A stretch of 64,000 bases of DNA, taken from positions 1 through 64,000 of the forward strand of contig CAXHJY010001587.1 of the NCBI GenBank assembly GCA_964016885.1, given 5' to 3'. Positions within the stretch are counted from its first letter, which is position 1, and every line of letters begins with the position of its first letter. A program made the position numbers and the translations under genes. The DNA comes from Eledone cirrhosa. Its lineage: Eukaryota. Below, in pieces: positions 1 to 62,345 of this stretch. The notes under the pieces are model-generated. The model saw only the letters and a program-made list of their open reading frames with translations, was not told the DNA's origin and made no database searches.

Positions 1-127
1 CTCCGTCGAAACGGCTTGAGTTCTGCCGTCGGGGTCATACTTTTTCCTATTTCTCACTCTACTGCCCTAATTATTGAGTACTCTGGTCGTTAAGGTCCAT
101 CTGGTTCCTTACCACAATTCCTTTGTT
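1..127 (+). mobile_element. Family A short element 3' end with 3' half of a hammerhead ribozyme
   Basis: GAAA-cggc-loop-gccg-UC-ggggtc at 8-36, then a tail ending in (TA)n. Related copies at 11882-12005(+), 12027-12165(-), 19450-19510(-), 39548-39605(+) and 43287-43490 (fold-back). Confidence 0.75.
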
Positions 128-1847
128 ATATATATATATATATATATATATATATATATATTTATATATATTTATATATATACATAGATAGATAGATAGA
201 TAGATAGATAGATAGACAGAAAGGGGTGAGATCTTGTCTCTCCCCCCCCCCTGTACATCAGGCCTCTCATAACCCCCATATCGATGATTCCTGATTGTGA
301 GCGGATACTTAGAGGGACATGAAAGACGCCGACAGGATAGCCCGAAATACAACAACACCAACAACAACAACAACAGGAACAAAAACTATACTAAACCGGA
401 AGAAGGCATTGATTCTCATTACTGTTACTATTGTAATTAAATAAAGAAATTAGTATTAGTATTGTTGTTGTTATTTGTACTTGATTGATTCGCGTGATTT
501 TGTTTTTAATTGGCGTCATTGAAGATAACCGCAGTGGATGTCTTTAATTAACACAAACAGGATTCGTTGGTGCACATCCCTGTAAAATTCTGGATTTCCT
601 ATTGTCACCGATTCAATTCTTTACATATACACCTATATAGTTTAGAGACCCCTAAAAGAAATACGGCTTTAAAATGCACGATTTTAGGGCTGGGAGTCAT
701 TTCTTTAGGCTGCTATTGTTTATTCCCAATTTAATACTAATTTGAATTCAGAATGTAAGAGACCCAATCTATAAACCACAAAGCAAGTTGTCGGGCCCTC
801 GGCAAATACGGCCAACACACCGCCCTTATAATTAAATTCATACCACAGAAAGAAAGTATTGGAACTAAATTTGAAGAAAATAAAATGAAGAAAAATGAAG
901 AAAAATAAAAGAAACAGAAGTGAGAGACGACGAAGAGGAGGGGGGGGGGGGTTAACAGACTATGTTGTTAGGAAAATCATCGAAAATACTTTAGTTTTAT
1001 ATCGTATATTAGACATTTCAAAATGGAGTCCCATCCCACAGAAAAGTTTCTAACAAAACGTTTTCCTGAATTCTTGTTACACAAGAAAGAAAGATGTATT
1101 TATTGATACGACATATAATTAAGCTTCATATACCAATAGCAACAGCAAACCTTAATTTACCATCACCACATCTCACACACACACATATATACACACAGAC
1201 ACACATAGACACACACACAGAGACACAGAGAGAGAAAGTGAGAGAGAGAGAGACCAATAGCCGCAACACCAAACCTTTAATTTACCATCACCACATCTCC
1301 CCCTCACACACACAAATATATATACACACAAACACACACACCAATAGCCGCAACACCAAACCTCTAATTTATTATCACATCTCTATTTAAATCCGCACAC
1401 ACATACGTCCCCACCCACCCACAGATACATACTTCTTCCCCACACCCACCCACACATATAAACGTCCCCACCCACCCACATTGACATACTTCTCCCCCAC
1501 ACCCACCCACACACACACATCCACCCCTTACTCAATGAGCCACCCTGTTATTATTTACATCTAATTTCACATCACTCATAATTACAGTAATTTCTTAACT
1601 AACTTACTAATGACACACCTGGAACTAGAACTGGCATTCTCCACAGACTAATATATCACACACACACACACACATATATATAGATATTTTATTTGTGTGC
1701 GTTATGATATATACACACATATATATATATATCATGCACGCACGCAAATAAAATATCTCTTTGTATATATATCCAGGAGATTCCAACCAGAATGGTTGCA
1801 TTTTTTCAGGGTATGTCAATATTTATTTATAAAACTAACCTATATTA

Positions 1848-1913
1848 TATTTTATCTGATGAAAGCGCACCATAGTTTGCCTTGGTGGCCCTTGAATTAT
1901 GTATAATGAAATA
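1848..1913 (+). ncRNA. Type I hammerhead ribozyme, family G (GAAU variant, probably inactive)
   Basis: tattttat-CTGATGA-aagcgcacc...ggtggccctt-GAAT-tatgta-TA-atgaaata. Near-identical to the intact copy at 19862-19927. Confidence 0.75.
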
Positions 1914-2237
1914 AATATGGTTTTATAAATATAGTTTCCATTTGTTAATATATTGTATATATAGTCATGCACACACATTTATACACACACACACACACAC
2001 ACACACACTGATACTGAAGCGGATCTTGTTTGTTGATGAAATTCCACCAGTTCCAACCAGCGTGCACCAGTTATTTGTCCAACGGAACAACTCTTTCTTG
2101 TGATTAACTTGTGACTGAACATTCCACAAACACATGTTCACAGCCCTCCCCCACCCCATCTTAATTAACCCTTCTCTATTAAATCCTCCTTGCCCCACCC
2201 CAACACTTTCTTATACTAAGTCTGCTATTGAAACGTT

Positions 2238-2292
2238 AGTTTTTCTCTGACGAACCTGTGATAAACAGGCGAAACTCCAGAGGACCAAGACT
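2238..2292 (+). ncRNA. Degenerate hammerhead ribozyme, family H
   Basis: CTGACGA-acctgt-gataa-acaggc-GAAA-ctccagag-GA. The sister fragment near 34000 has GAAActccagagTCacaagact, implying the cleavage triplet is mutated here. Confidence 0.65.
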
Positions 2293-58840: not shown

Positions 58841-59394
58841 CCTCCCTACATCTATTTATCTCTATCTATTCTTCTTTACCACTCTACCAATAATGCCTTC
58901 CTATCTACCATTTCTATTTATATATCGAAAAATCTATTTATCTTTATATATACATACATATATATATATACATGTATATATACATACATATATATATATA
59001 CATGTATATATACATACATATATATATATACATGTATATATACATACATATATATATATATATATATATATATATATATATGCATGTATATATACATACA
59101 TAAATATACATGCATGTATATATACATGCATGTATATATATATATGTATGTATATATACATGCATGTATATATATATATGTATGTATATATACATGCATG
59201 TAAATACATATATATATATATATACATGCATGTATATATACATACATATATATACATGCATGTATATACACATACATATATATATATATATATATATACA
59301 TGCATGTATATATATATACATGCATGTATATATACATACATATATATACATGCATGTATATATACATAGATATATATGCATGTATATATGGTGG

Positions 59395-59985
59395 CTGCCA
59401 ACTCGTTTTCGAGTACGGCCACTACTTTATATCCATGTAGGAGAACCCCTACCGATGCGCTAAACAAGTGTGACTTTTAGTCCAGCCAGCGACTTGAAAA
59501 CTCTGGTACAAACACTACACCTGTGACAATTATTGACACAGTGTTGGGGCCTTGGTACCATGTGACGACAAGTGTAGAGAGATCTCCAGATACAAAGCAA
59601 TGCCTGTGCCGTGAAGCTTTTATAGTGAGCAAAGGCACTGCACAAAGCCAGTCCCACTCTCTTAACCCGAGTTGATATTTACCAAAAAGAAGAATAAGTC
59701 AACATCATTGGATACCATCAGGGTTGCAGGTGTTATATCAGAGTTTTCCTTCTCCTAGAATTCTGCCTTGACAAAGGCTAAGGGGTCATCTCTCCCGGTG
59801 ATTTTGGATGGCCATTGACTCTTAAGAGCTCCTTTGCCCTTTTGACAGGTTTTGTTTTTAGTCCTGCAGGATGTCCAAAGTCACCCTCCTCACCAAGAAT
59901 CCTTGGTGGGGTTGCCAGTTTAGTCGCCAACAACGCGACCATGGGACAGGTTGTACTGGGATACATGTTACCAGTAGCACCAACT
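59395..59985 (-). mobile_element. Degraded LINE fragment(s), RTE-like
   Basis: C2H2-like HRCSVCTRVFKSLAGLK on the minus strand, plus a gagttttccttctcctag..aaggcta segment I associate with RTE UTRs. Confidence 0.45.
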
Positions 59986-62185
59986 GGTATATATACATAC
60001 ATATATATGCATGTATATATACATACATATATATGCATGTATATATACATACATATATATATATATATATATATATATATATATATATATGTATGTGTAT
60101 ATACATGCATGTATATATATATATATATATATACATGCATGTATATATACATACATATATATATATATATATATATATCACAATATATACATATCAATGT
60201 GTGTCCGTCCGTGTGTGTAAGTATTTGTTTGTTTATCAGTCTATACGTATCTACCTGTCTATTTATCTAAAAATCTATCTTTATATATATATACACATAT
60301 ATATATATATATATATATATATATATATATATCACAATATATATATATATATATATAATGAGAGTGTGTGTGTGTTTGTCAATCAGTCTATAATTATCTA
60401 TCTATCTACCAGTCTATTGTCCTTGCTCAATACTCATCTGTCTGTTTACCTATCTCTCTATCTCTCTCTCTATCTATCTCTCTCTCTCTCTATCTCTCTC
60501 TCTATCTATCTATCTCTCTCTCTCTCTATCTCTCTCTCTATCTCTCTCTCTATCTATCTCTCTATCTATCTCTCTATCTCTCTCTCTCTCTCTCTCTCTC
60601 TCTCTCTCTCTCTCTCTATCTCTATCTCTATCTCACTCTCTCACCCTCTCTCTCTCTCTCTCTTTCTCAACATATTTACTCTTTTAAACGGTATTTTTGG
60701 GGGAATCATATATATATATATATATATATATGTGTGTGTGTGTGTCAGTGAGTGTGTGTGTGTGTGTGTGTGTGTGTGTGTGTGTGTGTGTGTGTGTGTG
60801 TGTGTGTGTGAAAGTGTGTGATAGAGTGTGTGTTTGTGTGTGTGTGTGTGTGTGTGTGTGTGTGTGTGTGTGTGTGTGTGTGTGTGTGTGTGTGTGTGTG
60901 TATATATATGCAGGCAAGTGTGTGTTCATGCATCTCCATGTTTCAATTATTTCATTCTCGTGCCTGCTGAGCCGTCTAACTCATAACTCAAATCCAAGTG
61001 CCATCATATTCATTATTTGCTGCTAAAATAGCTCATCATCATTTATCAATATGGCCACGTTATTGCCTGACTTAAAGCTTTTTATTACGTACACTGCCAT
61101 TTTGACGAGATCCTACCGCCATTTTGACTAGCCGATATCGCCATAAAAATATTATATAGCACTAAAATACAACACTGCCTTTTTCTCTCTTTTTCTTTCA
61201 ATTTAGCTCTTCTGTCTTCTCCTCCTCCCCTCACTCATGCACACACTCTCATTCTCTCACACACATACATGCATACATACACACACACACACACACACAC
61301 ACACACACACATATATATATATATATATATATATATAAATGTATGTATATATTATATATATATATATAAACATATATACATCTATATTTATTTATGTATA
61401 TATACATGTTTATATACATATATATATATATATATATATGTATGTATGTATGTATGTATGTATGTATGTATGTATATACATATATGCATATATAAGGGAT
61501 TCTTTGCTCGACGGGTAAGCTTCGATCGTTTCGATATACGATACAGTTGTACCTAAAACAGTCAATCATTTTAACATGCACATAAACTAATCTACAGCAA
61601 TCAGAGTCATAAATACAAAAATGTTGCAGTGACTTCGAAGTTTCGGCTTCATCTAGCAGCCAGATCGGAAAAATATTCCTTCATCTTCTAACATTAGACT
61701 TTCCTCCTGACAATCCAAATTCACAAAAAGTAAGTTACCCAACACTAATAAACCGTTCTAATCATCTATCAACTATTAATATTAATTATTTCTGTATCAG
61801 CATTCCAAACATCTACTGCCATTCAAGAAGCATGTCCAGTCAAAGACAATTATCAAGAAATATCAGTTATCTAAGCAATCACTGTCACAACAAACATTAA
61901 TCATTACCGCATTGATTACATTAGATTGACAGCAAATCAATTTAAGATTAGATCTTATCCACATAATTATACCATTAAAAACATAGCTAAGACGGCAGAT
62001 ATCTGGGGATGGGAAGAACTATTCATTTAAAGATTAGTTGACACATTTTAAAGAAAAAGCAATATCTTACACACATTTCATTTACAGTTTCTATGTTGCG
62101 TCTTTAATTGGCTTAATTTCATTTCCACGGCGTAACTTTTTTGTTAAAAAGACACAACTGTGATACATGCATAGAAAGAGAGGGT

Positions 62186-62345
62186 GGTCTTCTACAGGAC
62201 TAGAACTGTTTCATTCGTATGAAATCATCAGGAATAGCTAGGAAGGATTATTTCATACGAATGAAACACTTCTAGTCCTGCATTTCTCATTTTTATATAT
62301 AATAAATTATGTTTCTTTTCTACTAACACATTGAGTACCATATAT
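62186..62345. mobile_element. Family B fold-back: hammerhead 62186-62238(-) plus inverted partial copy and tail (+)
   Basis: Minus strand: attc-CTGATGA-tttc-atac-gaat-GAAA-cag-ttctagtc-ctg-TA-gaag. The inverted copy at 62247-62280 is followed by cattgagtacc. Confidence 0.8.

Follow-up and report, generated by a model that had tools for sequence, protein, structure and literature searches.

A duplicated, covarying hairpin downstream of the hammerhead in Hydra-clade Penelope-like elements as a candidate positioning signal for reverse transcription

A 64,000-nucleotide (nt) stretch of the Eledone cirrhosa genome (assembly GCA_964016885.1, contig CAXHJY010001587.1, positions 1 to 64,000, forward strand; hereafter the window) carries short repeat insertions in which an initial annotation had noticed the 11-nt motif YRTYGAGTRCY downstream of hammerhead ribozymes. 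We report here that this motif forms the 3' side of a hairpin with a bulge, RCUC-[variable stem-loop]-UY-GAGY-RCY, whose upper stem covaries, which occurs mostly in duplicate in the leaders of Hydra-clade Penelope-like elements (PLEs) of many marine animals, and whose two copies lie next to the ends of their insertions. Comparison of these sequences leads us to propose, with a probability of roughly 0.6, that the twin hairpin would be an RNA handle to which the protein encoded by the element binds and which fixes the start of reverse transcription. The motif had been taken for a conserved cis-signal, such as a reverse transcriptase (RT) or endonuclease recognition site, an internal promoter or a splice-related element. 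Covariation and insertion ends now tie it to the retrotransposition machinery, although as a structure rather than a linear 11-mer, and for these same two reasons the promoter and splice options are disfavoured; RT and endonuclease recognition are both compatible with these findings.

Exact matches to the motif occur 12 times in the window against 1.08 +/- 1.0 expected from 100 shuffles (maximum 4), a count that alone exaggerates the significance because the pattern was picked post hoc and four of the sites belong to one repeat family, A, among the seven represented (A, B, G, H, K, M and N). All nine sites named in the initial annotation were found again on the strands given there, and the exact-pattern scan also gives 43332 (-), 45627 (-) and 62329 (+). 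When one mismatch is allowed the excess disappears (17 observed vs 24.8 expected); the one-mismatch matches at 12422, 22248 and 46560 were discarded, the expected context being missing. The first (TA)n or (CA)n run begins 41-73 nt downstream of the motif at 10 of the 12 sites, for which the background is 0.076 (P ~1e-6 for six of the seven families); the proposed spacing of 40-70 nt therefore describes most sites but neither of those in family B, where the TA run is only 0-4 nt away. Similarly, the distance of about 40-90 nt from the cleavage site was recovered at nine sites (38-89 nt) but not in N (110 nt), and at 62329 the cleavage site could not be placed. Only 4 of the 12 sites (H, both G and M) are accompanied by a CUGANGA core that lies on the same arm as the GAAA and no more than 50 nt upstream of it, the hammerhead being reduced to its 3' half (GAAAC...GUH) in A, K, N and the B copy at 3613, and a search of the window with Rfam 15 returned no hammerhead or other family at gathering score. 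With the hairpin masked, none of the 45 pairs formed by ten family representatives align at z>3, compared with 6 of 45 unmasked. Thus, the motif exceeds its background frequency and the tails, described as otherwise dissimilar, do not align end to end as one diverged family. The claim of six unrelated families holds in so far as several families share the motif in flanks that cannot be aligned, but these are likely distant members of one clade.

In family A the hairpin is formed by pairing of ACUC with GAGU and of UACU with AGUA, leaving a 2-nt pyrimidine bulge on the 3' side. The CTCTAC that was said often to precede the motif is indeed present and is, more exactly, the 5' strand of this hairpin, paired with the motif itself. 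The widespread form is GCUC...UYGAGCRCU, of which the ACUC/GAGU of the window is a compensated variant, and three window variants lying outside the 11-mer pattern keep the pairing: GCUC/GAGC (52046), GUUC/GAAC (2553) and ACUC/GGGU combined with GUGU/ACAC (6166). Compensated lower stems thus include ACUC/GAGU and GUUC/GAAC in the window, GCAC/GUGC in locus L097 and, by eye, GCCC/GGGC in the Hydra-1_Crog consensus. Covariation was assessed on 103 distinct sites picked on GCUC and GAGCRCY alone, which fixes the lower stem by selection and leaves the upper stem free. In the register with a 2-nt bulge, upper-stem pairs 1 to 4 are Watson-Crick in 98/103, 74/102, 54/87 and 22/54 sites against permuted means of 53, 30, 22 and 14.5, in a permutation test that takes no account of sequence relatedness; registers with bulges of 0, 1 or 3 nt fail this test. 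All four pair types are present at pairs 2 and 3, a second check was concordant (80 of 95 candidate sites), and the spacing between the two conserved halves of the hairpin varies from 8 to 20 nt. Minimum-free-energy folds of 50-nt windows gave only -0.5 to -9 kcal/mol, often lower on the antisense strand, and therefore the structure claim rests on covariation rather than on energy. Rfam covariance models gave no match at E<=5 over the hairpins of the three loci searched (L024, L034 and L070).

The hairpin with its RCY, hereafter the box, was then sought in 95 Hydra-clade loci picked by protein and blind to the motif, 77 from metagenomes (the best 80 of 369 being kept) and 18 from genome bins, which are probably contigs of host animals. 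The query consisted of intact Hydra proteins; the consensus of 50 aligned proteins carries RRMRWK, ADKT and CNCRxxxxC, as in the Hydra clade described by Craig et al. 2021 (PMC8557442). These loci provided 34 leaders, that is, non-coding regions from the hammerhead to the start of the open reading frame (ORF), falling into 21 sequence clusters. A strict hairpin descriptor, set from the window and published Hydra consensus sequences, matched 21 of the 34 leaders (12 of 21 clusters), with no match on the reverse strand or in 200 shuffles. The 9-nt core was found in 30 of 34 against a shuffle mean of 0.6, and in nine on the reverse strand because GAGYRCUC is near-palindromic. Under a relaxed definition, set after viewing the misses, every leader has a box and 30 of 34 have two, 55-74 nt apart (typically about 64 nt) with one pair at 89 nt; box 1 lies 47-66 nt past GAAAC, and in 26 of these 30 leaders the ORF begins 13-26 nt past the end of box 2. 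As to the suggested look at full-length PLE pseudo-long terminal repeats (pLTRs), the Hydra leaders hold the hairpin but almost never the exact 11-mer consensus, because the ACUC/GAGU of the window is a compensated variant of GCUC/GAGC. Among the six Hydra consensus sequences newly given by Craig et al., three hold, by eye, a clear box and two a partial or variant one; the box occurs twice in Hydra-1_Ajap and is present in consensus sequences from coral and sea cucumber.

Conversely, a covariance model trained on 80 boxes, none of them from the window, returned 12 matches in the window, among them eight of the twelve exact sites, six of which reach E<=0.17, and the variant at 52046; the seven top matches, at 28.2-15.0 bits, are all window boxes. 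The pattern also turned up at 18 loci in viral contigs, but no hammerhead core lies in the 200 nt upstream of any of them, and they were attributed to chance; no Hydra relatives were found in those contigs. Minus-strand matches to the 11-mer within Hydra ORFs were also set aside as coincidence within a conserved coding stretch (five checked).

The boxes coincide with the ends of insertions. Alignment of 3' copies to 27 leader templates gave 29 rows. Fourteen of these pass into a TA-type repeat, and in each the end has a box 0-6 nt on its 3' side (box 1 in eight, box 2 in six), although they are not independent draws since they come from few families, nine of them from one host bin. Of the remaining 15 rows, six break off at a contig edge, six end away from the boxes, two of these being cross-family matches, and three reach to within 1-6 nt of a box but have no clean TA run. 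In the window, tail-less ends lie 3-6 nt ahead of the hairpin in 7 of 11 comparisons (A, K, H, C and F); of the other four, three (two of G and one of B) ran on into TA-like sequence and one ended too soon. In family A, 980 raw reads and 79 contigs switch to (AT)n at 12105, which is 5 nt ahead of the hairpin. Because ends fall 5' of either box, the optional tail of Hydra loci extends from just before box 1 to just before box 2, which accounts for the distance of 40-70 nt between the motif and (TA)n.

Copies of family A in the sequencing data point in the same direction. Reads and contigs of four sequencing runs (12558, 16445, 7 and 1457 records) were compared with positions 11862-12184. In the 40 variant rows listed, beyond which there are 37 more, 6 of 12 loop positions and none of 32 stem positions vary (Fisher p 1.3e-4), as does the second base of the bulge. 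A change at 12074 is private to the window copy, being missing from ~96% of reads. In three runs, of which two bear the labels of other organisms, the summed depth of contigs is highest at the hairpin, which is mild support given that depth does not equal copy number.

Frangieh et al. 2024 (PMC11167929) report two internal sites at which a Poseidon protein begins reverse transcription; these coincide with the tail ends, the tail lying between them, and the authors hypothesise a nearby protein-binding motif that is only bracketed. In Hydra elements the box probably plays this role. The element protein would nick the (TA)n target, the nicked end would anneal to the UA-rich patch just 5' of a hairpin, and each box would bind the protein and fix the start a few bases 5' of it. 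The hairpin that sets the start would stay uncopied because synthesis of complementary DNA (cDNA) proceeds toward the 5' end of the RNA. Starting at box 1 would leave a tail-less end and starting at box 2 a tailed end bearing box 1 followed by 40-70 nt, so that the palindromic stubs of the window would be 5'-truncated head-to-head insertions with one end of each kind. At slightly under even odds, we suggest the more specific version of this scheme, in which the duplicated covarying hairpin serves as the binding and positioning signal of a telomerase-related RT, synthesis starts 3-6 nt upstream at the UA patch, and both copies are used, perhaps by a protein dimer, to give both ends of one insertion.

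Several observations weigh against this proposal, besides the non-independence of the TA ends, the rows and window comparisons that miss the boxes, the unlisted variants and the close TA runs of family B. No second box was seen for any window family, and window tails (~65-110 nt) are longer than the 55-74 nt between boxes. The bases directly ahead of each box are AT-rich, and therefore pairing with the (TA)n target could partly set the ends. A loose hairpin descriptor, which served to find variants, was not enriched in the window (18 vs 5-20 in 30 local shuffles), the covariance model misses the B sites, N, 39185 and 12073, and no clear box was seen by eye in the Hydra-1_Obim consensus. No window stub is joined in sense to an ORF, the Hydra-type remnant at 62323-63700 (-) opposing the adjacent B arm. 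Finally, G-U pairs are not in excess over A-C in the stems (14 vs 11; 3 vs 1 at internal positions), and the pairing data thus do not favour RNA over single-stranded DNA.

Bulged single-stranded DNA hairpins guide the recombination of IS608 and attC, and the element could likewise act as DNA, either in single-stranded cDNA or as an extruded cruciform, the GIY-YIG endonuclease binding it and cutting at the nearby TA patch so that insertion ends would be cleavage sites. The almost wholly Watson-Crick stems and the near-palindromic GAGYRCUC agree with such a role, as do earlier work, cited in PMC11167929, in which the Penelope tail is required for endonuclease recognition, and the attribution of tails to endonuclease-mediated resolution in PMC8557442. 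This is the main rival, and we nevertheless regard it as unlikely: the sole purified full-length PLE protein, from a different clade, places tail ends at the starts of reverse transcription (PMC11167929), a box 3' of an end is not copied into cDNA begun at that end, and the lower stem of family C holds a U-G pair on the sense strand. Less likely still is that the hairpins serve translation or stability of the uncapped, hammerhead-cleaved RNA and that ends fall nearby merely through UA-rich patches. The position of box 2 shortly before the ORF and the AT-rich upstream patches would suit this function, and ribozyme-linked cap-independent initiation has been described in R2 and L1Tc (PMC6765202) and in viral untranslated regions (UTRs; PMC13725137), but it leaves unexplained the 0-6 nt offset of both ends across families and the presence of a UA patch at that offset twice.

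A double-stranded DNA element, be it an internal promoter, a host-factor site or a splice signal, seems quite improbable. GCUC and GAGCRCU are conserved in sequence, but the upper stem covaries with free sequence and spacings of 8-20 nt, which demands base pairing, and alignments around the box show no conserved GU or AG splice dinucleotide; a Pol III B-box, DRE, NK2 site or branch point were dropped on account of the covariation. This reading draws some strength from the internal promoter and 5' intron that Penelope has in this general region (PMC2377424). Chance, or the residual likeness of one old functionless repeat family, to which the post hoc pattern, the share of family A and the poor fit of B and N might point, is ruled out for the element overall by flanks that do not align and by recurrence of the structure in independently fetched loci and in the published coral and sea cucumber sequences, and is possible at the B and N sites.

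As a cis-acting structure recognised by an RT, the proposed handle would belong to a known kind. The 3' stem-loops of stringent long and short interspersed nuclear elements (LINEs and SINEs) and the R2 3' UTR are small cis RNA structures near the start of target-primed reverse transcription that are recognised by the element protein. Unlike the Hydra box, which is twofold, lies 3' of an internal start and would remain uncopied when used, these sit at the 3' terminus of the RNA and are copied into the insertion. On the other hand, in hepatitis B epsilon and in the template-positioning elements of telomerase RNA a bulged or template-adjacent hairpin binds the RT and fixes the register of synthesis. 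However, protein serves as the primer at the bulge of epsilon, and in telomerase the boundary element, situated 5' of the template, brings synthesis to a halt; we claim no homology. Since PLE RTs are sister to telomerase (PMC8557442), being its closest retroelement relatives, a template-positioning hairpin would bear on the evolution of RT-RNA registers.

Another likeness is to the Poseidon element PAc (PMC11167929), where insertions can end at either of two places downstream of the hammerhead, the tail being the stretch that separates these; its target is AT-rich too, and a stem-loop is implicated. In contrast to PAc, where starts lie in a stem-loop rich in AC inside the ORF, the tail is 30-40 nt and, in the portions of that study considered, no conserved or duplicated element is defined, the Hydra box is a covarying bulged hairpin in a non-coding leader, duplicated, 0-6 nt 3' of each end, with tails of 55-74 nt or more. 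The loci examined share with the Hydra clade of Craig et al. (PMC8557442) the C-terminal endonuclease, canonical hammerhead, (TA)n targets, partial-tandem and inverted insertions and one-sided tail, whereas the main text of that account gives the tail as 30-40 bp and, as far as consulted, mentions neither 'hairpin' or 'stem-loop' nor a motif downstream of the hammerhead. No earlier description of the hairpin was found in the literature searched, a search that did not extend to Repbase or Dfam; a hairpin present in two copies, located 3' of internal starts and linked to the tail of PLEs, would thus be a new form. How PLEs choose their ends, and why the tail is one-sided, has been approached by the reconstitution in vitro of a single element (PMC11167929). 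The box, a structure of 25 nt found across the clade at 0-6 nt from both ends, points to a likely determinant that can be tested, and its covariance model annotates Hydra ends as well as non-autonomous stubs whose flanks cannot be aligned. If the more specific scheme is true, these 25 nt would amount to a signal that can be moved to any RNA to have it copied internally by target priming, and would represent a simple relative of telomerase template positioning.

The window is TA-rich in a way reminiscent of cephalopod genomes. Its insertions are short stubs set in (TA)n, several of them head-to-head palindromes in which one arm stops early and the other bears extra sequence with the motif. Palindromes with a one-armed tail occur in families A, K, G and C, and opposite-strand joints are also found in reads; inverted, 5'-truncated insertions with a one-sided tail have been described for PLEs (PMC8557442, PMC3846280). 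Predicted type I hammerhead cores are complete in copies of H, G, M and B, and only the 3' half is present in A, K and N. In A (e.g. 12125-12168, -) and K (19150-19235, +) this half stands alone, and reads extending 30 nt further upstream of A contain no CUGANGA; stem II of these families may be long or bear an intron. Insertion into (TA)n and, except for B, N and 39185, a leader box matched by the Hydra model agree with the Hydra clade, whose presence in this genome is shown by the putative ORF remnant. A Pfam search did not recognise the PLE remnants of the window. The window families are likely distant members of this clade, the link between stubs and Hydra ORF being uncertain, as is the membership of families B and N. 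Table 1 lists the sites.

Table 1. Boxes, motif sites and associated features in the window.
Feature	Position	Strand	Score or basis
Box 1 hairpin and RCY, family A, one upper pair decayed	56..82	+	exact match; Hydra-built model 15.0 bits, E 0.17
Type I hammerhead core, family H, cleavage triplet decayed; sister copy at 33978	2247..2287	+	
Box 1, family H; tail-less sister copy stops 5-6 nt ahead of box	2325..2350	+	model 15.7 bits
Variant box, family F: lower stem GUUC/GAAC (compensated), without RCY; tail-less end 3 nt ahead	2550..2574	-	no model match
Motif, family B; weak possible hairpin; TA run 4 nt on; membership uncertain	3613..3637	-	exact match; no model match
Variant box, family C: ACUC/GGGU with GUGU/ACAC as upper stem and a bulge of 3 nt; copies without tail stop 5 nt ahead	6163..6187	-	no model match
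Box 1, family A subfamily; listed genome-copy variants in loop and bulge, none in stems	11934..11960	+	model 22.7 bits
Box 1, family A; private RCY change; tail-less ends at 12105	12073..12099	-	no model match
Box 1, family K, tailed arm of head-to-head palindrome 18906-19266; other arm stops 5-6 nt ahead	19293..19319	+	weak model match, 8.9 bits
Box 1, family G; same-strand hammerhead core from 19919	19790..19812	-	model 15.8 bits
Box 1 of family G on the palindrome 23721-24125 (tailed arm), with CAA/UUG as upper stem and the hammerhead core at 24005	24111..24133	+	model 25.0 bits
Box of family A copy, cut off from hammerhead half (39548-39595) by LINE fragment; upper stem partly lost	39185..39205	-	no model match
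Box 1, family A, tailed arm of palindrome 43297-43490; other arm stops 5 nt ahead	43332..43358	-	model 18.1 bits
Motif, family N; pairing ambiguous, membership uncertain	45627..45637	-	exact match; no model match
Box with long AC-rich loop, family M; hammerhead core from 51482	51338..51380	-	weak model match, 9.2 bits
Box in widespread GCUC/GAGC form, 5-bp upper stem; one mismatch to 11-mer, compensated	52046..52071	+	best model match, 28.2 bits
Motif closing a family B arm, adjoining opposite-strand Hydra ORF remnant; without stable hairpin; uncertain	62329..62339	+	exact match
Decayed Hydra-type Penelope-like ORF (RT, thumb, linker); limits approximate	62323..63700	-	by-eye comparison with Hydra-1_Obim (Craig 2021 supplement)

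Judged on few non-Hydra leaders, the box looks largely Hydra-specific. Twenty regions were fetched from one bin in which other PLE clades abound. Ten of them (93.7 kb) were searched; all seven model matches at E<0.03 were interpreted as ends of Hydra elements or as nested tails of Hydra, and the box is missing from one Neptune-like leader. A term search of the Craig supplement, covering its Naiad and Chlamys consensus files, where line breaks may conceal matches, found one non-coding hairpin outside the Hydra file. It belongs to the Naiad consensus that stands just ahead of Naiad_Obim (PMC8557442 supplement) and is box-like, with a 6-bp upper stem and a UU bulge, downstream of a hammerhead-like core. 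Insertions consisting only of a Hydra tail (box 1 and ~45 nt) lie in (TA)n at the ends of PLEs of other clades (L136:3427-3500, +; L150:1190-1271, -). The bin G001 (L099-L110 in part, L134-L153), 12 Mb filed as a prokaryote, contains dozens of animal-type PLEs and (TA)n runs, which indicate heavy host contamination.

The LINE 3' fragment that parts hammerhead half from box within a family A stub (39201-39545, +) has no Pfam match; we take it to be an RTE-like C-terminus. An L1/Tx1-like ORF2 3' end occupies 46671-47591 (-), with a zf-RVT match at E 4e-5, and the one-mismatch motif at 46560 in its 3' region was taken as chance. A 320-nt imperfect inverted repeat at 9543-9863 has arms that appear tRNA-derived by eye, ARAGORN calling no tRNA there. 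Palindromic or one-sided-tail stubs in (TA)n that share a common end sequence and have no visible box (6551-6765, 43526-43690, 12394-12553 and 19530-19720) possibly represent another PLE clade with a different signal. In addition, tandem arrays at 54409-54822, 45719-46136 and 19019-19116 are built of units that go back either to the ends of PLE stubs or to a hammerhead-like core, of which they hold the 3' half; the birth of minisatellites from PLE ends is a possible origin.

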